Assembly: GCA_964369415.1 (NCBI GenBank)
Contig: CAYJFP010000003.1
Location: forward strand, 31,782 to 95,781
Direction of reading: 5' to 3'
Source of the DNA: an uncultured Eubacteriales bacterium
GTDB lineage: Bacteria; Bacillota; Clostridia; Oscillospirales; Acutalibacteraceae
Length of the DNA stretch: 64,000 nt
Shown here: positions 349-43,120 of the stretch, piece after piece
Position numbering within the stretch: the stretch's first letter is position 1
Layout of the letters: every line of letters begins with the position of its first letter
Notes under the pieces: model-generated
Databases searched by the model: none
Told to the model about the DNA's origin: nothing
Seen by the model: only the letters and a program-made list of their open reading frames with translations
Made by a program: the position numbers and the translations under genes

Positions 349-1560
349 TTGTTTAATTTTATTTTTAAGGAAGGTATTGAATTGGAAACAGAAAGAAACG
401 TTATACGCTCTAACAATAAAAATTTAATTGCAAATACAATCAGAAGTATCGGACCTATTACCATAGAAGATTTAGTCTCTTCTTGTAATTTAAGTAGACC
501 TACTGTTGTGGGTATTGTTAAAGAATTAACCGAGAACTGCATCGTCGAAAAAGTGGGATTTGAAAACTCTGTCACAGGTAGAAATCCTGCACTTATTGGT
601 ATATCTTCCAACAAGTATTTTTCTATCGGCATTGACATGGAGTTTCCTAAAATATCTTTTTGCTTCATGAATTTAAAATCTGATGTCATTTTTGCTCCTG
701 CTCCTGTCACTATTCACGATTCTAGTAATCCGAATGAATTCCTGAATAATCTTTGCAATAATATAGTTAATTCTTGCAACCAAAATGCCTTAGATTTGAA
801 GAATTGCATAGGAATAGCTGTAGGAACTTCGGGTGTCATAGATAGTAACAAGGGTATAATTTATTTTGCTGAAAGAGCTGCTAATTTTAACAATATAAAT
901 GTTAAAGAAATAATCAGTTCTAAGCTTAACTTGCCCGTTTATCTTCAAAATGATGTTCACTTACTTTCACTTTTAGAAGTCAATAATAATCCCGAGCTTA
1001 AAAACAGCAATTTTATTTATTTAGCCGTTCGGTCTGGAGTCGGCGCAACCGCATTAGTTAACGGCTCTCCCTATTTAGGTACCAACGGAAATTCTGGCTA
1101 TGTCGGACATATGGTTATTGACATTAACGGTAAAGAGTGCAAGTGCGGAAACAAAGGGTGTTTTGAACTTTTTGTAAGTAAAGAATCTATTGTTGATATG
1201 TACTGTGAAATTCTCAATCTACCTGAACAAATATCAGACTTAGTCACTATAGATAAAATTTTTATTAATGCGCAAAGCGGAGAAGTTCACGCTCAAAAAA
1301 TCATTGATGGTCTAATTAATTATTTAAGCATAGGTATCATAAATATCGTTAATATTTTTGATATATACAATGTAGTTATTGCTGGTTTTCCACATGAAAA
1401 CAACCATGATTTCTATTCTCAACTTAACGATAGAATTAAATCTAAAAGGCATTTTTCAGTGAGTAAAACAATAAATGTTTCTCCAAGTATTTCAGATGTC
1501 AACGACTGTAATATTGGGTGTGCACTATATATTGTCAATGAATTTTTCACTAATATTTAA
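349..1560 (+). CDS. ROK-family transcriptional regulator (NagC/XylR-like)
   Basis: N-terminal wHTH (PITIEDLVSSCNLSRPTVVGIVKEL). ROK sugar-kinase fold with zinc motif GHMVID...CKCGNKGCFE. True start is probably TTG 382, behind AAGGAAGG, because 349 lies only 14 nt after the -10. Confidence 0.85.
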   Translation: MFNFIFKEGIELETERNVIRSNNKNLIANTIRSIGPITIEDLVSSCNLSRPTVVGIVKELTENCIVEKVGFENSVTGRNPALIGISSNKYFSIGIDMEFPKISFCFMNLKSDVIFAPAPVTIHDSSNPNEFLNNLCNNIVNSCNQNALDLKNCIGIAVGTSGVIDSNKGIIYFAERAANFNNINVKEIISSKLNLPVYLQNDVHLLSLLEVNNNPELKNSNFIYLAVRSGVGATALVNGSPYLGTNGNSGYVGHMVIDINGKECKCGNKGCFELFVSKESIVDMYCEILNLPEQISDLVTIDKIFINAQSGEVHAQKIIDGLINYLSIGIINIVNIFDIYNVVIAGFPHENNHDFYSQLNDRIKSKRHFSVSKTINVSPSISDVNDCNIGCALYIVNEFFTNI

Positions 1561-1597: not shown

Positions 1598-2791
1598 TTA
1601 GGCATCGTCTTTTGTAATTTTCATAAGTACGAATTCAAAGTTATACTTTGAGTTATTTGTATTTGCGTAAAAAAGACTTTGAAGGCGCTTAAGCACCATT
1701 CTTCCCACTTCATAATCTTCAATATTAGGAAGCAAAAGAGCAAACTGACTTGGGCTGTATCTTGAAATTGTATCGCCACTTCTTAAATTAATTCTTAAAA
1801 GCTCTCTCAAATTTTTCATAGCAAAATCAAGCTCTAAAGACTCAATATCATCCACATTCATAGATTTAATGCTTACAATTCCTAAAAACATCTGCGTGCC
1901 AAATCTTTTTAAATTTCTCATATAAAGACGGTAAATATCTTTAAAAATCGTATATTCACACACAAATCCGCCCTTATCATCGTCACTTGCTTTAAGGTCT
2001 GTATAAATTTGTTCTATATTCGCCTCTGCTTTTTTCTCACTGTCCATGAGCTGTTTATAGAAATCTAAAATTTCATCTGAAGGCTTAACTCCAAGATGGG
2101 CATAATACAAGTCTGTAATATTCTGATACTGCACAAGAGCTTCTTTATGTTTACCAATTTTTAAAAGAGCCTGCATAAGCTCTATATTTAAAAGAACGTC
2201 AAAGACATCAATCTCAAGTGCAATTTTACAAATTCTTATTACCTCTCCATAGTCCTCTTGTTCGTTCAAAAGTCTTATATACTGATAAACTGTTCTTAGA
2301 TATAAATTATGATAATAATACGACTTAGGCGCTAACCATGAATTAATACTTGAATCAACAAACAAATCATCATTGTACATGAATAAAACTTCATCGAATT
2401 TCTCTTTAGCGTCTCTATTAAGCTCACTGGTGCTTTCAAGATCTTTACAAATGTCGTCAAGTTTGAAAATGTCAATTTCACAATCCAAATTTGGATTCCA
2501 CATGTAAGCGCCACGTTTTGTGACTATAGCGTCTTCAAGTCCGCACTGGCTAAGGTCCTTTCTAAGCCTACTGACAAGAGTCTTCAGTGTATTTTCCAAA
2601 TTCAAACTATCGTCTCCGTCCCAAAGGACTTCTATTATACGACCAACTGAAACTGGACGATTCTTATTTATTATTAAACATTCAAGTAATAAAAGTTTTT
2701 TTGGCGATTGCTTAAATCTTTTTGCTATGTCTTCGCCATTTACAATTATTCTCATTTCGCCTAATGTATATATATTAACCTTGTTTTGCAT
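1598..2791 (-). CDS. SARP-like activator (OmpR/PhoB-type wHTH + BTAD) with C-terminal degenerate GGDEF-like domain
   Basis: wHTH: TLKTLVSRLRKDL...VTKRGAYMW. BTAD-like helical region ending HLGVKPSDEILDFYKQL. C-terminus reads RSGDTISRYSPSQFALLLP where GGDEF domains read RxxD-x5-GGDEF. RBS GAAGGGAAG precedes the ATG. Confidence 0.7.
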   Translation of the reverse strand: MQNKVNIYTLGEMRIIVNGEDIAKRFKQSPKKLLLLECLIINKNRPVSVGRIIEVLWDGDDSLNLENTLKTLVSRLRKDLSQCGLEDAIVTKRGAYMWNPNLDCEIDIFKLDDICKDLESTSELNRDAKEKFDEVLFMYNDDLFVDSSINSWLAPKSYYYHNLYLRTVYQYIRLLNEQEDYGEVIRICKIALEIDVFDVLLNIELMQALLKIGKHKEALVQYQNITDLYYAHLGVKPSDEILDFYKQLMDSEKKAEANIEQIYTDLKASDDDKGGFVCEYTIFKDIYRLYMRNLKRFGTQMFLGIVSIKSMNVDDIESLELDFAMKNLRELLRINLRSGDTISRYSPSQFALLLPNIEDYEVGRMVLKRLQSLFYANTNNSKYNFEFVLMKITKDDA

Positions 2792-2817: not shown

Positions 2818-3978
2818 TCAAATAAAAGTATTCTCAATTCTAATTAATTTATAGCTGAAATTGTAATTTTTATTAAATTCTTCCTCATAAAAATTACCTT
2901 TAAGTCTTTCCATAACAGTCCTACCAACTTCCTCATCGGCAGCAGATGGTAGTAACGCGGTAAACTGCGTCGCACTGTATCTTGAGATAGTATCTCCTGT
3001 TCTAAGTCTTTGAACCAAGACATCCTGCAATTTTTTCATAATTTCATTCATTCTTTCAGGATCACTATCCTCTTCACATTTCGGTGTAACACTGACAAGA
3101 ACCAAAAACATTGATTGACCCAGTCTTCCTAAGTTTCTCATATGTAAATAGTAAATCTCTTTAAAAAGTGAATATTCGCAAACAAATGCACCATTAATCT
3201 CTTCGTCTAACAATTCTTCATTTATTTTCTCTATAGTAACAGTCTCTCTACTCTTAATAATTTTATTGTAATAGCTTTTCATTTTATCGGTAGAATCGAC
3301 ATTGGCAGAATCTTTTTTAATAACTGTTACATCCACCTTATTCTCACCAAGCTTAATCAAGGCCATTACCATATCCATATTAAAACTCGACTCAGCACTA
3401 TATATATGAAGAACCGCCTCGCACACTCTTAAAACATCTTTATACAAGCCCTCTACTTTTAAGAAATCAACGTATTTTCTCATCAATTTTAAAAATAAAG
3501 TTCTATAGTACTCTCTTTTTTCTTCAACAAAACACGCCGACTCCTCATTGCTTAAGAGTTCACCTTTGTATAATTTCAATATTTTTTCAAATCTACGTTT
3601 AAGGCTATCTGTAAATAAGGTTTCAGTTTCTATCTTCTGTGCAATATCATCAAACTCATCTGTATCTATTGTACATATGTCTCTATTCCACAGATATGCT
3701 CCAGCACGAGTAATTATCGCCAACGGATACCCATTATCATCAAAAATTTTTCTAATTCTGCTAATTCCTGTTTTAATGGCACCTATTCCAAGAATGCTCT
3801 TATTTTCTCCCCATTCCACCTCTGACAATTCAGCAAGTGTAACCGGACCTTTTTTAAGAATTATATATTCTATAATACTCTTTCTCTTAAAAGGTGTCTT
3901 AAACTTAGAAGAAACATCTGCATTCTTTATTTCTATACTAAACTCGCCAAACAAGCATATATCCGCAACTTTACTCAC
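2818..3978 (-). CDS. SARP-like activator (wHTH + BTAD) with C-terminal degenerate GGDEF-like domain; paralogue of 1598-2791
   Basis: Same architecture, alignable over the full length. C-terminus RTGDTISRYSATQFTALLP. GTG start behind GAGGGAG. Only 26 nt separate it from the downstream paralogue, so the two are probably co-transcribed. Confidence 0.7.
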   Translation of the reverse strand: MSKVADICLFGEFSIEIKNADVSSKFKTPFKRKSIIEYIILKKGPVTLAELSEVEWGENKSILGIGAIKTGISRIRKIFDDNGYPLAIITRAGAYLWNRDICTIDTDEFDDIAQKIETETLFTDSLKRRFEKILKLYKGELLSNEESACFVEEKREYYRTLFLKLMRKYVDFLKVEGLYKDVLRVCEAVLHIYSAESSFNMDMVMALIKLGENKVDVTVIKKDSANVDSTDKMKSYYNKIIKSRETVTIEKINEELLDEEINGAFVCEYSLFKEIYYLHMRNLGRLGQSMFLVLVSVTPKCEEDSDPERMNEIMKKLQDVLVQRLRTGDTISRYSATQFTALLPSAADEEVGRTVMERLKGNFYEEEFNKNYNFSYKLIRIENTFI

Positions 3979-4055
3979 TTCAAATCTCCCTCAATAAATA
4001 TAATGTCGATGATTAATTGAATCAAATCTTTAATCCAAACTTACACATTTTCAAT

Positions 4056-4084
4056 ATTATACACTATTAAAGTTACATTTGCAA
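4056..4084 (-). promoter_or_regulatory. putative sigma-A promoter of the regulator pair
   Basis: On the minus strand: TTGCAA (4084-4079), 17-nt spacer, TATAAT (4061-4056). Confidence 0.45.
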
Positions 4085-4102
4085 TACATTTAGCATACAT
4101 TT
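4074..4102. repeat. three direct TACATTT heptamers at exact 11-bp phasing (candidate SARP operator)
   Basis: TACATTTgcaa TACATTTagca TACATTT, starting at 4074, 4085 and 4096. They overlap the -35 of the minus-strand promoter. Confidence 0.55.
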
Positions 4103-4149
4103 TAAAAATATATGCTGTAACTATTAAATAATTAATCTATAGATTTGGA

Positions 4150-4177
4150 TTGACACTTTAAATCTTTGTGCTATAAT
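4150..4177 (+). promoter_or_regulatory. putative sigma-A promoter (extended -10) of the lipoprotein/pilus-like operon
   Basis: TTGACA (4150-4155), 16-nt spacer ending TGc, TATAAT (4172-4177). Confidence 0.55.
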
Positions 4178-4266
4178 AGTATATAAGAAATTAAATGTTT
4201 ATTTTACTTCAGTTTTATTAATTGAATTTTTAAGTTTATGTATCTCACCTATATTGGGAGGCTGAT

Positions 4267-5250
4267 TTGGAAATGAAGTTTCGAGCTATAACATGCTTTA
4301 TCATAACTATAGCTTTAATATTTGTACTTATAGGATGCGACAGTGGTCTTACCCCTCCTTTGGGAAGTTCTTCCAGTAATAGTGGTAGTACTACCCCATC
4401 GGGACAGTCCGACCCTAATGCTCCTAAAGGTGATAGAGATCCTGTCGCAGTTGTTTTACCTACAACCGCCGATGGGATAAGTGCATATACTGGCAACGCT
4501 GCCATAATAGATACATCAAACACGGCTAACGGTTATTTTATGGTAAAGTACACTGGAAGCAAGGAAAAAATCAAAATGCAAGTTACCCACAACGGCGGTG
4601 AACCTTATACTTATGACCTCATCCCAGGCGGCGATTATGAAGTCTTTCCACTTGCACCTGGCAACGGCTCTTACACCGTTACTATAAATGAAAACATTGA
4701 GGGCACAAGTTATGCGGTTGTCGATACTCATTCGTTTGAAGTCACTCTTGAAGACGAGTTTCAGCCGTTTTTACACCCTAGTAAATATGTAAATTATACA
4801 GATAGCCCTAACACTGTTGCTTTAAGCGAAGATTTAGCCGACGGAGCTTTTAACGACCTAGATGTGGTCGAATCCGTTTACAATTATGTGACAAACAATG
4901 TTTCATACGACCATGATAGAGCAGCCACCACCACTACGTTTTATATCCCTGATATGGATGTAACTCTTTCGTCAAACGCAGGACTTTGTTTTGATTATGC
5001 CGGCCTTATGACCTCTATGTTAAGGGCACAAAGAATTCCAACACAGCTTGTAATCGGATATGCTGGCGATGTCTATCATGCTTGGATAAGCGTCTATACT
5101 CCTGAAACGGGGTGGGTTAAAGATATTATACAGTTCGACGGTGTTAACTGGGTTAGAATGGACCCTACATTTGCTTCTTCTGCTGGAGACCCAAGCATAG
5201 AACAGTACATCGGAGACGGTAAAAATTATAACGCTATGTTCTTTTACTAA
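4267..5250 (+). CDS. lipoprotein with transglutaminase-like cysteine-protease core
   Basis: Signal peptide plus lipobox VLIGC. S/T/P/G-rich linker. Cys-His-Asp triad context GLCFDYAG...VYHAWISV...WVRMDPT. Start is TTG 4267 or ATG 4273, behind GGGAGG. Confidence 0.8.
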   Translation: MEMKFRAITCFIITIALIFVLIGCDSGLTPPLGSSSSNSGSTTPSGQSDPNAPKGDRDPVAVVLPTTADGISAYTGNAAIIDTSNTANGYFMVKYTGSKEKIKMQVTHNGGEPYTYDLIPGGDYEVFPLAPGNGSYTVTINENIEGTSYAVVDTHSFEVTLEDEFQPFLHPSKYVNYTDSPNTVALSEDLADGAFNDLDVVESVYNYVTNNVSYDHDRAATTTTFYIPDMDVTLSSNAGLCFDYAGLMTSMLRAQRIPTQLVIGYAGDVYHAWISVYTPETGWVKDIIQFDGVNWVRMDPTFASSAGDPSIEQYIGDGKNYNAMFFY

Positions 5251-5266
5251 TTGAGAGGGTGATAAT

Positions 5267-6322
5267 ATGGATAAAAAAGTAAAAAAAGTTAAACAAATTA
5301 GTACACATGACCTTTGCTATCTATTTGAGCAACTGTCTATCTTTTCAAAAAGTGGAATTCCAACTTGGGAAAGTCTTTACATAATAAGTCTTAATGAGAA
5401 AAATTCTGGCAAGACAAATGTATTTTACAGACTTTATGAATTGGTGGCAGACGGAATGTTCTTCTCACTTGCTATGAAGGAGCTGGGCTGCTTCCCATCG
5501 TATGCAGTTAGCATGGTTGAAATGGCAGAGCAAACAGGTAAAACAGAAGATGTATTCATGACACTTCATACTTACTATAGCAACCGTGACATTCTTTCAA
5601 AAAATATTAGGTCAAGCGTTGTTTATCCGCTTTGTATGGCTGGCATGGTATTTGCTGTTGTATTTATTCTGTTAGTTCAGGTTATGCCGGTGTTTGAGCA
5701 GGTTTTTGAAGGCCTTGGCCTTGCTTTAAATCCCGTTTCGGTCGTTCTTTTGGGAATCGGACAAACGCTTAATACCTATGCCGTAGCAATTTTGGCTGTA
5801 GTTGCCGCTATAATCCTATTTTTTGTAGTTCTAAAATTTACAAGCGGTGGAAAAAAACTCTTACTTTCATTTTATGAAAAATTTCCACTTACACGCCGTT
5901 TGTCAGAATCTGAAAATATATCTAAGTTTGCTTTTTCAATGTCATTAATGATAGGAAGCGGACTTGATGCCATAAGTTCATTAGAGTTTGCCTCTATGAT
6001 TACACAGAGCAAATCCCTAAAAAAGAAAATTGCTTTGATTAAAGCCGATATTGAAAGCGGTACCAATCTTTCAGAAGCTATAATTTCAAGAAAAGTATTT
6101 TCTCCATTTTATAATGGTATTGTCATAGGCGGTGTGAGAAGTGGTGCAATAAGCGAGACTCTCATGACAATCGCCGACAGATATTCAAATGATACGCAAA
6201 AGCAAATTCAAAAAATTCTATCTATTATCGAGCCTTTAATGCTCGCCGTTTTATGCCTTACAGTAGGACTTGTAATGCTCTCTGTAATGCTTCCGCTAAC
6301 CGGAATTCTCTCTGGAATGTAA
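5267..6322 (+). CDS. type II secretion / type IV pilus platform protein, GspF/PilC family
   Basis: Two GspF-type repeats. Cytoplasmic helical bundles (FEQLSIFSKSGIP..., MVEMAEQTGK...) alternate with TM segments. RBS GAGAGGGTG. Confidence 0.85.
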   Translation: MDKKVKKVKQISTHDLCYLFEQLSIFSKSGIPTWESLYIISLNEKNSGKTNVFYRLYELVADGMFFSLAMKELGCFPSYAVSMVEMAEQTGKTEDVFMTLHTYYSNRDILSKNIRSSVVYPLCMAGMVFAVVFILLVQVMPVFEQVFEGLGLALNPVSVVLLGIGQTLNTYAVAILAVVAAIILFFVVLKFTSGGKKLLLSFYEKFPLTRRLSESENISKFAFSMSLMIGSGLDAISSLEFASMITQSKSLKKKIALIKADIESGTNLSEAIISRKVFSPFYNGIVIGGVRSGAISETLMTIADRYSNDTQKQIQKILSIIEPLMLAVLCLTVGLVMLSVMLPLTGILSGM

Positions 6323-6334
6323 AGAGGTGGTATT

Positions 6335-6670
6335 TTGAAAAACAGTGCTTTGCTTTTTAGATTAAAAAATTTAATTAAAAGTACGGCCCTTTGGTCTATA
6401 GTTTTATTTGTTTCTGTGCTTTTAATTTTAAGTTTAAGTGTCACAGATGTGTCTTCTACTGTCACAGATGAACAACAAGTTCTAATTGAAGACATAATTA
6501 GAAGAAGTGCCGTTCAGTGTTATGCTATAGAAGGCTCCTACCCTAGCGATCTTCAGTATCTTATAGATAATTATGGACTATATTATAATAAAGAAGATTT
6601 TGCCGTTCACTATAACAATGTCGGTGGTAATTTACTTCCTGAAATCAAGGTGTTTTATTTAAGCGAATAG
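6335..6670 (+). CDS. small N-terminally membrane-anchored protein of the pilus-like operon, function unknown
   Basis: Single N-terminal TM (ALWSIVLFVSVLLILSL) followed by a soluble domain of about 70 aa. TTG start behind AGAGGTGG, 13 nt after the GspF stop. Confidence 0.5.
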   Translation: MKNSALLFRLKNLIKSTALWSIVLFVSVLLILSLSVTDVSSTVTDEQQVLIEDIIRRSAVQCYAIEGSYPSDLQYLIDNYGLYYNKEDFAVHYNNVGGNLLPEIKVFYLSE

Positions 6671-6686
6671 TAAAAGGAGGAGAAGA

Positions 6687-7175
6687 ATGAGGCCAGCTAA
6701 AAAACATTCAGCTGAAATAATTTTTGTCTTAAGTCTGTTTTTAATATATACTTTTTGCGCTCTCCTTCTCTCAGTTATGGGGGCAAATGTATACTCTAAA
6801 AACGTTGATGACTCTGAAAAAAACTATAATATGAGAACTTCTCTTTTATACATAACCGAAAAAGTAAGGCAAAACGAGTCTATCGGAAATATATCTGTGG
6901 GAACAGCTCTTGGAAACGACGCTCTAGTTCTCTCTAGAACTATCGACGAGACCGTTTACAACACTTGGATTTACTTTGAAGATGGAAATCTTTGTGAGGT
7001 TATTGTTCCTTCTAACCTAGAGATAGTTCCAAATATGGGACAAAAAATTATGTCTGTTTCAGCTATGGAATTTGAAATTAACGATAGTCTTCTTTCTGTT
7101 ATAATTACTGATGAAAATCAAAATCAGTTTTCCTCTAATCTTTTCTTAGAATGTGAGGTGGCTGTAAATGACTGA
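6687..7175 (+). CDS. N-terminally anchored protein with TadE/pseudopilin-like N-terminus (recalls DUF4860)
   Basis: N-terminus KKHSAEIIFVLSLFLIY: basic residues, small residue, Glu, then a hydrophobic helix. Strong RBS AAAGGAGGAG. Confidence 0.5.
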   Translation: MRPAKKHSAEIIFVLSLFLIYTFCALLLSVMGANVYSKNVDDSEKNYNMRTSLLYITEKVRQNESIGNISVGTALGNDALVLSRTIDETVYNTWIYFEDGNLCEVIVPSNLEIVPNMGQKIMSVSAMEFEINDSLLSVIITDENQNQFSSNLFLECEVAVND

Positions 7176-7593
7176 AAACAAATCTAAAACCAAATATTTT
7201 TTAATTGAACTTATAGTTAACTGCATGTTTTTTGCAATTTCAGCTGCAATTTGTGCAAATGTTTTTGCCATAGGTCATGTCGAAAGTGAAGCGAGTAGGG
7301 ATTTATCTATCGCTACTGTCGAAACACAAAACATAGCGGAGATTGTAAAATATAGCGGTGGCGACATCACAAAAATTTCTGATTTACTGTCGGCTACTGT
7401 AGATAGTGAAAGTAATCTAAATATTTATTATGACGATAATTTTGTAAGGACTGATTCAAAACAAAATGCCGTATATACTATCTCACTTACATTTACAAAT
7501 GTAGATAATATCTTATATTCTCATATAGAAACAATTAAAGAATCTGAAAGTATCTTCGAGCTTAACTGCTCACTTTATACGCAAAATTTATGA
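7168..7593 (+). CDS. pseudopilin-like protein with degenerate class III signal
   Basis: KSKTKYFLIELIVNCMFFAISAAI resembles K-G|FTLIELIV but has Tyr where the -1 Gly is expected. The 8-nt overlap with the previous gene suggests translational coupling. Confidence 0.5.
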   Translation: MTENKSKTKYFLIELIVNCMFFAISAAICANVFAIGHVESEASRDLSIATVETQNIAEIVKYSGGDITKISDLLSATVDSESNLNIYYDDNFVRTDSKQNAVYTISLTFTNVDNILYSHIETIKESESIFELNCSLYTQNL

Positions 7594-7620
7594 TAAAATC
7601 TTATTTAAGGAGGTGAACAC

Positions 7621-8037
7621 ATGAAAGAAAATCATGCTAAAGCCGTCGTAAGTACTGGTATTGTCTCGCTTGTCACTTTTTTCACTGTTATGCTTCTAGC
7701 TTCGTTTTCCGTTTTGATTTTGATTAGTGCAAGGTCAGATGCAGAACTTTCGGGCAAAGCCGCTGATTCACTTAGTGAATACTATTTAGCAGATAGCAAG
7801 TCTGAAGAAAAGCTCGCTGAGCTTCAAAACCTGTGTTCAAACACCTCTTATGAGGAACTTGAATCTGTCCTTGTCCAAAACGGTTTTAACGTTTACACCC
7901 TTGATGGCTATGACGGATTAATAGTAAATTACGATACTGAAATCAGTGATTTAAAATATTTATCTGCTGAAATTTTTATCCCTGTCGCAGATAAAGATTC
8001 CCCTCAAAAAATAACTTGGAAAATTATTTTAACATAA
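7621..8037 (+). CDS. small N-terminally membrane-anchored protein of the pilus-like operon
   Basis: N-terminal TM (IVSLVTFFTVMLLASFSVLILIS) followed by a soluble domain. RBS AAGGAGGTG. Confidence 0.5.
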   Translation: MKENHAKAVVSTGIVSLVTFFTVMLLASFSVLILISARSDAELSGKAADSLSEYYLADSKSEEKLAELQNLCSNTSYEELESVLVQNGFNVYTLDGYDGLIVNYDTEISDLKYLSAEIFIPVADKDSPQKITWKIILT

Positions 8038-8079
8038 CAATAAAAATACATGCCGACAATCGGCGAAAGGAGCATTTTT

Positions 8080-9162
8080 GTGGAAATTATAGATTTGCTA
8101 AAAGAAATGGTTAATAAACATGCCTCTGACATTTTTATCATTGCGGGTAGACCCCTTAGTTTCAAGTTAAACCAAAGGATAGAAACTCTAAATGATACGG
8201 TGATTTTGCCGGCGGCCGCAGAGGAAATGATTGAAAGTGTGTACACTCTTTCAAAAAGAGACATTAGCCTCGTAAGAGACAAGGGTGATGATGACTTTTC
8301 ATTCGCTATAAAAGGCGTCTCTCGTTTTCGTATAAACACATATAAGCAAAGAGGTTCACTTGCCGCTGTTATTCGTGTTGTACCCTTTTCACTGCCTAAA
8401 CCTGAAGAAATTCATATTCCAACCGATATTTTAGAGCTTGGTAACAAGCAAAGAGGACTTGTGCTTGTAACAGGTTCATCTTGTAGCGGTAAAACCACTA
8501 CTCTTACTTGTATATTGGATGAAATAAATAAGACTAGGCCTGCGCACATCATCACTCTTGAAGACCCTATTGAGCATCTCCATTCTCATAAAACAAGTAT
8601 TATTAGCCAAAGAGAAATCACACTTGATACAGGCGATTATCCCGCCTCTTTAAGAGCAGCACTAAGGCAAAGCCCCGATGTTATCTTAATCGGTGAGCTT
8701 CGTGATCCTACCACGATCAACATTGCGCTTACGGCTTCTGAAACTGGCCACCTCGTGTTTTCTGCTCTTCATACACTCGGTGCAGCAAACTCTATAGATA
8801 GACTTGTCGACAGTTTCCCAGCTAACCAGCAACCACAAATCAGAATGCAACTTTCTATGGTTCTACAAACTGTTGTATGCCAGCAACTTGTTCCGACCGT
8901 CGATGGAAAAGTGCGTCCTGTCTTTGAAATTATGCATTGTAATAACGCTATAAGAACACTGATTCGTGACGGCAGAACTCACCAGATTAACTCTATCATC
9001 CAGTCTTCTTCAGCCGCTGGAATGATTACCATGGATTCTAGTCTTGCAAAACTTTATAAAGAAGGCATGATTACTAGAGATACCGCCTTAACTTACAGCC
9101 TTACTCCTGCTTTTCTTCTTCGCCAAATTGGAGAAGAACCACTTGCAATGGGAATACACTGA
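8080..9162 (+). CDS. pilT: PilT-family secretion ATPase (retraction-type hexameric motor)
   Basis: Walker A GSSCSGKTTTL, Walker B/Asp box ILIGELRD, His box GHLVFSALHT. PilT-specific AIRNLIRE-type motif AIRTLIRDGRTHQI. N-terminal ASDIFIIAG...FRINTYKQ. Start placed at GTG 8080 behind AAAGGAG; the ORF track starts at 8050. Confidence 0.85.
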   Translation: MEIIDLLKEMVNKHASDIFIIAGRPLSFKLNQRIETLNDTVILPAAAEEMIESVYTLSKRDISLVRDKGDDDFSFAIKGVSRFRINTYKQRGSLAAVIRVVPFSLPKPEEIHIPTDILELGNKQRGLVLVTGSSCSGKTTTLTCILDEINKTRPAHIITLEDPIEHLHSHKTSIISQREITLDTGDYPASLRAALRQSPDVILIGELRDPTTINIALTASETGHLVFSALHTLGAANSIDRLVDSFPANQQPQIRMQLSMVLQTVVCQQLVPTVDGKVRPVFEIMHCNNAIRTLIRDGRTHQINSIIQSSSAAGMITMDSSLAKLYKEGMITRDTALTYSLTPAFLLRQIGEEPLAMGIH

Positions 9163-10061: not shown

Positions 10062-10658
10062 TTAACCCCTCGCTTTGTCTTTTTTTCTGAAAAAACTTCC
10101 AATCCACTTGAACATTCTCAACATTACTCTAAAAGAGAATTTTGTAAAGGTAATAAGTGGGAAAATGCTGACTAACAAGAGTCCTAAACTGGCGATTCCC
10201 ATTGCCATAAGCGCCAAACCTTGCGGAACTCCTATGTGGAACATATTGAATATTCCTTGTAAAATTCCAGCAAGTCCCGCTGTCGCAAAGACTAATTCCA
10301 CCGAAAATGCCATTAATAACATCGAACCTGCCAAGGCTACAACAGTGATTATCAATGCAAAAATTAAAGACGCTATCGTTAGCCAAAACGGCGAGGCTAA
10401 AATTATGAGAATAATCCATAAGACTTTATTTTTACTGCCCGACACCTTATTTATAACGGGAATGGTAAACTCTCCTTCGATGTCGCTTTCAATAGAGTTT
10501 ATATCCCCCATGTCCGAAACAGCTTCCTCTTCGCTCATGCCCGACTCTATCCTGTCGCTTATGCTCTCCTCGTAAAAGCTGAGTATTCTTTCAACCTCGC
10601 TATATGGCATGTGGCTTAATTTAGTTTTCAATTCTTCCATAAATTCATGTTTATTCAT
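10062..10658 (-). CDS. DUF1700-like membrane protein
   Basis: N-terminus HEFMEELKTKLSHMPYSEVERILSFYEESI followed by a polytopic C-terminus. The start overlaps the PadR stop. Confidence 0.7.
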   Translation of the reverse strand: MNKHEFMEELKTKLSHMPYSEVERILSFYEESISDRIESGMSEEEAVSDMGDINSIESDIEGEFTIPVINKVSGSKNKVLWIILIILASPFWLTIASLIFALIITVVALAGSMLLMAFSVELVFATAGLAGILQGIFNMFHIGVPQGLALMAMGIASLGLLLVSIFPLITFTKFSFRVMLRMFKWIGSFFRKKDKARG

Positions 10659-10986
10659 GAGTATTCCCTCCACTTTTTTCTATATCTTCTGCAATAAATT
10701 CGTAAACTTTCATTACCTCGGCCCAGTCTTCAATAAAATTTTGTGTTTGCTTTATCCCTTTTGAAGTAATTTTATAGTATTTTCTTAGTCTACTGTTGTG
10801 TTCTACCGTGTATACACTTAAAAATTCGCTTGCTTCAAGACGCTTTAAAATCGGATACAAAGTTGATTCTGAAACTTTAATATACTCAGAAATATCCTTT
10901 ATAAGCTGATATCCATAGGAATCACCCCTTGTAAGCAATTTTAAAACACACGCTTCAAGTAGGCCTCTTTTCATTTGGCTGTCCAA
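10651..10986 (-). CDS. PadR-family transcriptional regulator
   Basis: LLEACVLKLL..GDSYGYQLIKDI...STLYPILKRLE...RKYYKITSKG. Confidence 0.9.
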   Translation of the reverse strand: MDSQMKRGLLEACVLKLLTRGDSYGYQLIKDISEYIKVSESTLYPILKRLEASEFLSVYTVEHNSRLRKYYKITSKGIKQTQNFIEDWAEVMKVYEFIAEDIEKSGGNTHE

Positions 10987-42028: not shown

Positions 42029-43120
42029 CTAACTAAATTGTTTAACAATTTTATTCATATCATTAAAATTTTCTTCCATATCGCTTAATAGTTTAAGCTG
42101 TGTTCTACCTCTATATAAATTATGCAAAGGCTCGTTTATTTTAAAGTAGAAATCACCCTCAAGATAATCAGTCAAAAATCTTATGGCGCTTTCAAGTGTC
42201 ATTATCTTAGCACCAAAAGCAAGGTATTGAATTTCTGTCTCCGTAAGCGTTTCCCCTGCTGATTCCATAAACCCTTTGGTGAAAAGCTCATATAACTCTA
42301 GGCTAAAATTTACTTTTGACAAATCTTTTTCATCTTCTTGGCAATTATTTGCTGAAAATCTGATTGTATCGCCAAAATCATAAGCACAAAGTCCCGGCAT
42401 AACCGTGTCAAGGTCTATTACACATATTGCTTTCATAGTTTTCTTATCAAACAAAATATTATTAAGCTTTGTATCATTGTGTGTTACCCTTAATGGTATT
42501 TTTCCACTTTTTTGCAAATTAATTAAAACTGAACACTCTTCTTCTCTTTCAAGTATAAAACCAATCTCATTTTGTATATCTTTTGCTCTATTAAAGCTAT
42601 CTTTTTTTATTGCATCTTTAAAATTTTCTAGCCTGTTTTTTGTATCATGAAACTGTTTTATTGTCTCGTTTAAAGTTTTGGCTGAATAAGTAGACAGCAG
42701 CTTTTGAAATGTACCAAACGCTTTTCCACTCTCGTACATATTTTCTGGTTTTTCTGGTTTTTGTAAGCATACTGTATCCTCTATAAATAAATAAACTCTC
42801 CAATAATCTCCATTTGTATCGCAAAGAAAATTTTTATTTTCAAGTGTTTTAATTACATTAAGACTTTCCCTATTTGAGTCTCCACCATTTTCTTTAATTA
42901 TTTTTATTAAATGCTCTGTGACTCCCACAATATTTTGCATTAGTTCCTTAGGATTTAAAAAAACAGTTTTATTAATTTTTTGTAGAATATATCTCGTATT
43001 TTGTGTTTTCACAAGAAATGTGTCATTTATATGTCCAAACCCATACTTTTCTACCGATATTCCTCTTAAGGCAAAAGAATTCAGTATATTATTAAACATT
43101 TTTAAATCTACGTCTTTCAT
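42029..43120 (-). CDS. APH-fold phosphotransferase, sugar-1-kinase-like (NahK/MdsC-like)
   Basis: GHINDTFLV nucleotide loop, catalytic loop VTHNDTKLNNILF, metal site VIDLDT. Confidence 0.65.
   Translation of the reverse strand: MKDVDLKMFNNILNSFALRGISVEKYGFGHINDTFLVKTQNTRYILQKINKTVFLNPKELMQNIVGVTEHLIKIIKENGGDSNRESLNVIKTLENKNFLCDTNGDYWRVYLFIEDTVCLQKPEKPENMYESGKAFGTFQKLLSTYSAKTLNETIKQFHDTKNRLENFKDAIKKDSFNRAKDIQNEIGFILEREEECSVLINLQKSGKIPLRVTHNDTKLNNILFDKKTMKAICVIDLDTVMPGLCAYDFGDTIRFSANNCQEDEKDLSKVNFSLELYELFTKGFMESAGETLTETEIQYLAFGAKIMTLESAIRFLTDYLEGDFYFKINEPLHNLYRGRTQLKLLSDMEENFNDMNKIVKQFS

Follow-up and report, generated by a model that had tools for sequence, protein, structure and literature searches.

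Streptomyces antibiotic regulatory proteins (SARPs) and the heptamer boxes that they recognise are textbook material in Streptomyces and, to our knowledge, have been described as confined to actinomycetes. Degenerate GGDEF domains that use the inhibitory site (I-site) to bind cyclic di-GMP (c-di-GMP) are, in turn, represented by receptors of the PelD and PopA type. Here, we analysed a 64-kb stretch of DNA from a low-GC lineage of Clostridia (hereafter, the window; GC content of approximately 35%), in which an array of 11-bp direct repeats lies between 2 tandem regulator genes and a divergent pilus/secretion-like operon. The original prediction, made from the sequence alone, had read this array as a SARP box over the promoter of the regulator genes. 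Judging from its conservation across related loci, the array is a real, conserved regulatory site rather than an AT-rich curiosity, and it is very probably the binding site of the 2 regulators. With moderate confidence, we interpret positions 4071–4102 as the operator of a SARP-type, activator-assisted promoter through which the regulator genes would be subject to positive autoregulation.

In SARP boxes, direct heptamer repeats are arranged in 11-bp units that overlap the −35 element, with the proximal site located 8 bp from the −10 element, and AfsR protomers bound to such boxes replace the contact of sigma region 4 (PMC10972967, PMC11301090). Tandem 11-bp direct-repeat units in the −35 region also define the PHO-type box (PMC11870197, PMC3978041), the unit of which is TT(A/T/C)ACA with an 11-bp period in Bacillus and has the conserved sequence CTGTCAT in Escherichia coli (PMC11870197).

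The repeat array and its promoter geometry

On the plus strand, positions 4074–4102 read TACATTTgcaaTACATTTagcaTACATTT, with 3 TACATTT heptamers starting at 4074, 4085 and 4096 in an 11-bp phase, exactly as predicted, and Tandem Repeats Finder delimits a period-11 array of 2.6 copies over the same interval. When any 7-mer present in 3 copies at a fixed period of 8 to 24 bp was considered, the array was the sole case within the window. For order-2 Markov copies of the window (n = 200), the expected number of such triples was 0 at period 11 and 0.015 over all periods from 8 to 24 bp; the corresponding values from simulations on the intergenic region, which has a GC content of 22% (300 × 10 kb), were 0 and 0.003. 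The array is far beyond chance, which settles the concern, raised together with the prediction, that the repeats might be a frequent chance pattern in AT-rich DNA. The minus-strand promoter TTGCAA-17-TATAAT was likewise found at the place assigned to it. The repeats, this promoter and the genes that it faces are as follows, the family register being the one conserved in related loci.

4093–4102, minus strand: distal repeat; AAATGTA at 4102–4096; in the family register, TGTATGC at 4099–4093, approximately −50 to −44 from the predicted start, of which TGTA alone fits the consensus TGTAACC.
4082–4091, minus strand: middle repeat; AAATGTA at 4091–4085; in the family register, TGTATTG at 4088–4082, approximately −39 to −33, overlapping the −35-like TTGCAA.
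4071–4080, minus strand: proximal repeat; AAATGTA at 4080–4074; in the family register, TGTAACT at 4077–4071, approximately −28 to −22.
4056–4084, minus strand: predicted promoter facing the regulator genes; −35-like TTGCAA at 4084–4079, 17-bp spacer and −10 element TATAAT at 4061–4056; 10 of 12 consensus positions matched; predicted start near 4049.
2818–3978, minus strand: regulator 1, 386 aa; divergent winged helix, BTAD and degenerate GGDEF domain; recognition helix GAIKTGISRIRKIF, atypical for the family.
1598–2791, minus strand: regulator 2, 397 aa; canonical family member with Trans_reg_C, BTAD and degenerate GGDEF domain; recognition helix NTLKTLVSRLRKDL, common to the loci with TGTAA pairs.

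With the start taken near 4049, the 3 TGTA(A/T) cores fall at approximately −50/−46, −39/−35 and −28/−24, and the proximal repeat is separated from the −10 element by 9 bp as a heptamer, or by 11 bp when counted from TGTAA. The AAATGTA register is displaced by 3 nt from the family register and mirrors conservation inside the window, not across the family. Thus, the proposal that TACATTT/AAATGTA is the recognition heptamer holds for the shared TGTA, whereas the heptamer conserved in the family is TGTAAC(C), read on the minus strand. An A-rich run preceding TGTAAC (e.g., aaaaTGTAACC) is frequent in metagenome loci. As for a reading of the repeats as an RNA element, this was ruled out, because Rfam returned only a sub-threshold microRNA match over positions 3500–4800.

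Relatives of the locus were collected in several ways. Eight proteins in an index of 5.8 billion proteins resemble regulator 1, and they are encoded on contigs with the same divergent arrangement of regulator and operon; a scan of genome contigs with regulator 1 alone returned no relatives. A profile-based scan of species-representative genomes yielded 340 relatives, from which 78 loci were kept, mostly from metagenome-assembled genomes (MAGs) labelled Christensenellaceae, Oscillospiraceae or Clostridia. Among them are low-GC, Firmicute-like contigs titled "uncultured Bacteroides sp." (L008–L011, L016, L017, L019, L023, L026 and L038) and one assigned to Phocaeicola dorei (L056), which look like mislabelled or contaminated bins. 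A metagenome scan contributed 80 loci (407 kb), with no relative of the window above 35% identity.

To avoid presupposing a motif, every 5-mer was counted at spacings of 6 to 30 bp in 23 divergent intergenic regions. The outlier was TGTAA (TTACA on the other strand) at a spacing of exactly 11 bp, with 12 strand-locus counts and at most 1 at any other spacing. Exact TGTAA-N6-TGTAA pairs occur 12 times in the 8.1 kb of divergent intergenic DNA (1.48 per kb) versus 6 times in the remaining 689 kb (0.0087 per kb), and each of those 6 is followed within 650 bp by a family regulator (L014, L017, L019, L023 and L026). Markov resampling of the intergenic regions (2,000 runs) produced a mean of 0.14 TGTAA pairs and a maximum of 2, and the density of TGTAAC is 6.4-fold higher in the divergent intergenic regions than elsewhere. 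The metagenome loci contain 5 exact pairs, all located 90 to 206 bp upstream of the regulator match and on its strand; the replication rests solely on this location test, since the spacing scan on the same set, in which TGTAA peaks at 11 bp with other k-mers scoring higher, is noisy owing to the close relatedness of many of the contigs. Within the window, TGTAW-N6-TGTAW was found outside the array only at position 42762, inside an open reading frame (ORF; 42029–43120), and is taken as a chance occurrence there.

The same data bear on the idea that the array is a box for another response regulator of the OmpR/PhoB family, such as a PHO box of the PhoP type. The plus-strand units GTTACA, AATACA and CATACA recur with an 11-bp period and match 5, 4 and 4 of the 6 positions of the Bacillus TT(A/T/C)ACA (PMC11870197), and the PhoB DNA-binding domain is a structural match to the winged helix of the regulators. 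Yet the related loci, approximately 1.1 Mb in all, contain 23 exact pairs, every one of which has a regulator of the SARP-like GGDEF family next to it, and presence of the motif tracks the recognition helix of that family: the segment (E/G)(N/G)TLKTLVSRLRK(D/E)L is near-invariant in the motif loci, including regulator 2 of the window, while operon-terminal regulators carry TALRTLLHRYR and have no motif. Furthermore, the neighbouring genes are not phosphate genes and there are 3 units rather than 4, so that a PHO box is a very unlikely identity for the array. In loci where the regulator follows the T2SS-E gene or precedes the operon on the same strand, the recognition helix differs and no TGTAA pairs were found near the regulator, the flanks covered stopping short of the operon-upstream regions.

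Beyond the paired motif, a composite arrangement, TGTAAC-N5-TGTAAC-N10(11)-TATAAT, is common to 8 loci (the window, L001/L006, L005, L014, L017, L019, L023 and L026). In their alignment, the columns TGTA, TGTAAC and TA.A.T are invariant amid otherwise unalignable DNA, giving the consensus aTGTAACCnnAATGTAACC-N9-TATAAT; the middle repeat of the window aligns with the upstream TGTAAC of the 7 other loci. Variants are TATATT in L001/L006, a weaker −10 element (TACACT) in L005, and TGTATT as the upstream hexamer in the window. The promoter faces the regulators in the window, L001/L006 and L005, and the gene for a giant surface protein in L014, L017, L019, L023 and L026. A −10-like hexamer stands at the required offset in 7 of 18 exact pairs, compared with 1.7% of background positions (binomial P = 1e-8, not corrected for relatedness). 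Searching 685 kb for the composite pattern with up to 2 mismatches gave 8 matches, all adjoining family regulators, and the only match in the window is at 4088–4056. Several of the promoters sharing this geometry have no −35 element (e.g., ACCCGA in L017), as expected of activator dependence.

These comparisons also decide the case of a functionless local duplication, in which replication slippage would have multiplied an 11-bp unit in an AT-rich spacer. The 3 copies in the window have identical AAATGTA, and the 2 distal ones share a non-consensus T at the fifth position, as a recent duplication would give. Against this, loci with unalignable flanks and with proteins of approximately 35% identity retain the motif together with its 11-bp spacing and its distance from the −10 element. 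It is this cross-species evidence that excludes a functionless duplication, for which the chance test alone is insufficient, and we accord that origin a negligible probability. Duplication may nonetheless have added the third copy, the proximal pair being the apparently ancestral part of the layout. The expectation that the phased repeat should recur at related loci was hence borne out for the 11-bp repeats and their fixed distance to the −10 element, at protein identities of approximately 35%, albeit with a different heptamer from the one proposed.

Domain architecture of the 2 regulators

In regulator 2, Pfam recognises Trans_reg_C (1.2e-11), BTAD (4.1e-8) and, weakly, GGDEF; regulator 1, which aligns with the family, has a BTAD match below the cut-off (0.0016) and no significant match for a DNA-binding domain. 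Comparison of the family profile with solved structures retrieved AfsR (5e-14, residues 29–250), EmbR (9e-9) and diguanylate cyclases (approximately 1e-6, residues 286–382). An AlphaFold model of regulator 2 (mean predicted local distance difference test score of 84) places the beginning of the winged helix at residue ~5, and Foldseek matched this model to the SARP domain of AfsR in the RNA-polymerase complexes 8K60/8HVR (E = 5e-11, target template modelling score of ~0.7) and also to EmbR. The winged helix of the model matches the DNA-binding domains of PhoB, ArlR and AfsR, and its C-terminal third matches GGDEF domains; diguanylate cyclase domains were found by phmmer, too. The SARP-like nature attributed to the 2 genes in the original prediction is therefore upheld by Pfam, by the AfsR profile match and by Foldseek. 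A response-regulator receiver domain (Response_reg) was looked for in both proteins by Pfam, and none was found.

The GGDEF domain appears to have lost its catalytic function. When aligned to the c-di-GMP-bound cyclase 3IGN, the RSGD of the regulator falls on the I-site RQSD and SPSQF on GGEEF. Across the family, GG(D/E)EF is replaced by SxxQ(Y/F), with S in 76 of 89 regulators, Q in 88 and Y or F in 83. By contrast, R and D of the RxGD motif are invariant (89/89), and the RxxD stands 5 residues before the GGDEF position. By their domain composition, both genes are thus to be read as encoding a SARP-type module joined to a GGDEF domain that is catalytically dead and keeps an I-site-like motif. 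The degenerate active site combined with the invariant RxGD makes the hint of c-di-GMP a reasonable one, and we tentatively name c-di-GMP as the signal, at somewhat less than an even chance.

The 2 regulators are only 34% identical to each other, whereas regulator 2 shares 67% identity with its L001 homologue. Tandem regulator pairs were also observed in L001, L005, L006, L012, L013, L015, L018, L022 and L031, and their recurrence suggests a heteromeric or an antagonist pair. There is no further family regulator and no giant adhesin within the window.

Sign of regulation and the divergent operon

The conserved register before TATAAT (4061–4056), in a promoter that faces the regulators, makes autoregulation through a SARP-like box the best reading of the array. 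Of what had been proposed, the 11-bp repeats over the regulator promoter and the SARP-like regulators stand; the register does not. The gap to the −10 element is 9 bp, against 8 bp in SARP boxes. We infer binding, its sign, the identity of the binder and the ligand from these patterns, and envisage the following mechanism. The winged helices of adjacent regulators would bind head-to-tail to TGTA(A/T) heptamers spaced by 11 bp on one face of the DNA. The most likely binder is regulator 2, with its family-typical recognition helix, regulator 1 being a possible partner. The proximal protomer would be positioned 9 bp upstream of the TATAAT and the next protomer over the −35 region, and, as in AfsR, the DNA-bound dimer or trimer would replace or supplement the sigma region-4 contact and recruit RNA polymerase via BTAD, resulting in positive autoregulation. 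The dead GGDEF domain with its invariant RxGD probably ties binding or oligomerisation to c-di-GMP.

That the site activates, taken on its own, we consider only slightly better than an even bet. The same proteins could act at the same site with the opposite sign, the array being an auto-repression operator that occludes an intrinsically active TTGCAA-17-TATAAT. The fit of this promoter to the consensus at 10 of 12 positions is in line with such a role, the sites span −50 to −22, the usual territory of repressors (PMC11301090), and the heptamers of other clades overlap the −10 element or the start, or sit in the leader of the regulator gene. However, it is from this very geometry that AfsR and other SARPs, the nearest homologues to have been characterised, act as activators, and the identical geometry, devoid of a −35 element, drives surface-protein genes in L014, L017, L019, L023 and L026, an arrangement that is sensible only for an activator. 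On balance, auto-repression at the window promoter is improbable.

Several observations nevertheless count against an activating operator bound by the 2 regulators. Every domain of regulator 1 is below the Pfam cut-offs. The 2 distal copies in the window (TGTATGC and TGTATTG) deviate from the family consensus TGTAACC. Of the 22 other divergent loci, only 9 have the exact pair and 5 have neither a pair nor TGTAAC, and the loci are phylogenetically related, so that P values are optimistic. The minus-strand promoter keeps a fair −35 element (TTGCAA) and a perfect −10 element, and may fire unaided, in which case a protein bound from −50 to −22 could repress it; the basal activity that it may have would be sensible for an autoregulated activator and is also compatible with repression. 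The pilus-like operon, too, has a perfect consensus promoter, which is expected to need no activator. Finally, in an AT-rich clade (L008, L009 and L016), the regulator-strand pairs lie between the −10 element and the ribosome-binding site, and the regulator promoter of a rumen-type clade has its −10 element joined to a lone TGTAACC (TTGCAA-17-TGnTAAAAT followed directly by GTAACC), often with a second copy downstream.

The sites of these 2 clades are at positions typical of repressors. In L113–L163 (rumen/metagenome), approximately 100 bp upstream of the regulator start, a highly conserved aatACTTG(C/T)(A/C)AA-17-TGnTAAAAT has a TGTAACC that begins with the final T of the −10 element, likely an auto-repression layout and unlike that of the window. 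Given the repressor-like positions in 2 clades, members of the regulator family probably act as activators at some sites and limit their own expression from others, according to where the sites lie.

The remaining features of the intergenic region and the operon on its far side are the following.

4041–4052, minus strand: AAAATGTGTAAG, possible extra leader site just downstream of the minus-strand −10 element; holds another TGTAA and includes TACACATTT at 4042–4050.
4116–4122, plus strand: fourth heptamer TGTAACT, inverted, directed toward the pilus-like operon; starts 56 bp before the operon −10 element, approximately −68 to −62; candidate upstream class I-like site.
4150–4177, plus strand: predicted sigma-70-type consensus promoter of the transglutaminase/T2SS-F/DUF4860/T2SS-E operon; TTGACA-16-TGcTATAAT, 12 of 12 matches plus TG extension.
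4267–9162, plus strand: divergent 7-gene pilus/secretion-like operon; transglutaminase-like lipoprotein, T2SS-F, 4 small membrane-anchored proteins including DUF4860, and a T2SS-E/PilT-like ATPase.

Two of these features had been noted before and were recovered: the related, out-of-phase TACACATTT is present, and the strong plus-strand promoter proved to have a perfect, TG-extended consensus. AAAATGTGTAAG is possibly a further site for the regulators, placed within the leader. In L001, AAAAATGTGATTTTGTAAG at approximately 6640–6665 is similar to it and also lies downstream of the −10 element, at a different distance. The suggestion that did not survive is that of a weak plus-strand −10 element (TGtAACTAT, 4116–4124) with an activator-dependent start after the third repeat: the orientation of the repeats is wrong for the conserved geometry, in that they point the other way, and the TGTAACT within this element is itself a consensus heptamer, the same as in the proximal minus-strand copy. 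The 2 strands of the window together contain 28 copies of TGTAAC, from which the chance of 1 occurrence in a stretch of ~165 bp on the operon strand comes, by arithmetic, to approximately 0.04. In L008–L011 and L016, the proximal operon-strand heptamer is located 58–59 bp before the operon −10 element. TGTAACT at 4116–4122 is more likely an inverted fourth heptamer upstream of the operon promoter than a −10 element and, at approximately −65 from that promoter, may place the pilus-like operon under the control of the 2 regulators as well.

It could then be asked whether the array mainly serves the operon, as an upstream activating or architectural site acting together with TGTAACT at 4116–4122, its overlap with the regulator promoter being secondary. 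In favour of this, regulators of the family are linked to the operon in 3 layouts, the −10 element of the operon comes 56 bp after the beginning of the fourth heptamer, and the AT-rich clade (L008, L009 and L016, as well as L027 with 1 mismatch per pair) has 2 TGTAAT pairs, one toward each gene, the operon-strand pair lying 58–59 bp before the operon −10 element. The 3 repeats of the window, however, face away from the operon, at approximately −86 to −108 from its predicted start near 4184; their distance to the operon promoter is not conserved (approximately 125 bp in L001), the conserved distance being that to the minus-strand −10 element; and the operon promoter has a perfect consensus. An array devoted chiefly to the operon is accordingly quite unlikely, less so than a PHO box, and an operator of the regulator genes is preferred.

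The 3 layouts of regulator–operon linkage are divergent (23 non-duplicate loci, including the window), same-strand with the regulator upstream (L025 and L029), and with the regulator after the ATPase gene (~25 loci). The remaining family regulators are solitary or divergent from a gene for a secreted protein of >1000 aa. Genes of the latter kind lie on the minus strand and are cut by the locus end (L014 1–3580, L017 1–3200, L019 1–3343, L023 1–3208 and L026 1–3341); the secreted protein of L014 contains Listeria-Bacteroides repeats and an MBG domain. The 7 genes of the cassette are conserved together (window, L001–L013 and L048–L083), and a regulator of the family nearly always accompanies them. 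Its small proteins have N-terminal hydrophobic segments, one being DUF4860 and another having a pilin-like KYFLIELIV start, and neither a prepilin peptidase nor a canonical major pilin gene was seen in the cassette.

In 2 loci with a regulator after the ATPase gene, a unit of ~55 bp is present in 2 or 3 tandem copies between these genes (L077 3771–3905, where it reads ttttgcggcataacggccgcggatcaatagaatctttgattgattaaaac, and L080 2675–2800). In the window, a ROK-family regulator gene (349–1560, plus strand) lies just past regulator 2, and a small ORF (10651–10986, minus strand), PadR-like by eye, and 2 membrane-protein ORFs lie beyond the operon; neither the former nor the latter have a link to the repeats.

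Comparison with known systems

Within the literature covered by our search, we found no paper describing a BTAD-GGDEF regulator or the 7-gene operon, and no work on DUF4860. By homology, a SARP-type module for DNA binding and activation, with nearly the same promoter geometry, is present in uncultured Clostridia of the Christensenellales type, where it is fused to an apparent c-di-GMP receptor and wired to surface structures, namely, the pilus/secretion-like cassette and adhesins of >1000 aa. We cautiously put forward, as a proposal that may well need revision, that these proteins of gut and rumen Clostridia form a family not described before: class II activators of the SARP type that would sense c-di-GMP, would read TGTAACC heptamers 11 bp apart in place of the −35 element and would switch on, besides the genes encoding them, giant adhesins and a non-canonical type IV pilus/secretion-like cassette. 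If true, SARP-style activation extends outside Actinobacteria and a new class of c-di-GMP-responsive transcription factors exists. If confirmed, TGTAAC-N5-TGTAAC-N10-TATAAT would be a cis-element for regulon prediction in organisms not yet grown, the family would be a candidate for a c-di-GMP effector of a new type, and the switching of adhesion or pilus genes in gut anaerobes could be framed in a simple model open to testing. For the window itself the claim is narrower, that of a conserved regulatory site. What is observed directly is the anatomy of the sequence, the homology of the domains, and a motif and a geometry that are conserved between species; known systems are compared with these below.

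Regulators of the PhoB/PhoP type resemble those of the window in having a winged helix, which here would likewise be placed on tandem 11-bp direct-repeat units, at a site that replaces or overlaps the −35 element; CTGTCAT and TT(A/T/C)ACA of the PHO boxes resemble TGTAAC/GTTACA of the window family. Unlike PhoB and PhoP, the window regulators have no receiver domain and no adjacent partner kinase gene, their DNA-binding domain is N-terminal and followed by BTAD, and they probably respond to a nucleotide ligand, not to phosphorylation. Thus, of the hallmarks of response regulators, the tandem 11-bp repeats are found and the N-terminal phospho-accepting receiver is not.

With PelD and PopA, the window regulators share the GGDEF fold, the loss of the catalytic GG(D/E)EF and of metal-binding residues, and an RxxD at the canonical spacing, that is, a predicted ligand site. 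Both the lost catalytic motif and the inhibitory-site motif expected of I-site receptors are there in the sequence. They differ from PelD and PopA in that the GGDEF domain is fused directly to a SARP-type module for DNA binding and activation.

The closest relationship is with SARPs, such as AfsR at afsS, ActII-ORF4, DnrI and RedD. In both, an OmpR-type winged helix is directly followed by BTAD, the best matches being AfsR and EmbR, and in both, the box holds 2 or 3 direct heptamer repeats, set in 11-bp units along the same DNA face, that overlap the −35 region, with the proximal copy at a fixed short distance of ~8 bp from the predicted −10 element (9 bp in the window family versus 8 bp in SARP boxes). 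The differences are that the host belongs to a low-GC lineage of Clostridia, with relatives in MAGs labelled Christensenellales or Oscillospiraceae, rather than to the actinomycetes; that the heptamer is TGTAACC instead of TCGAGxx; that the C-terminal partner is a degenerate GGDEF domain, where SARPs have NB-ARC/TPR or none; that the regulator in the window is a tandem pair of paralogues; and that the putative targets are not antibiotic gene clusters but the regulator genes themselves, giant surface proteins and a pilus/secretion-like operon. The window regulators thus depart from the definition of SARPs as actinomycete regulators of secondary-metabolite clusters and agree with it in domain order and box architecture: what is familiar is the logic of DNA recognition and activation, and what is new is the host lineage, the heptamer sequence, the sensor domain and the target genes.

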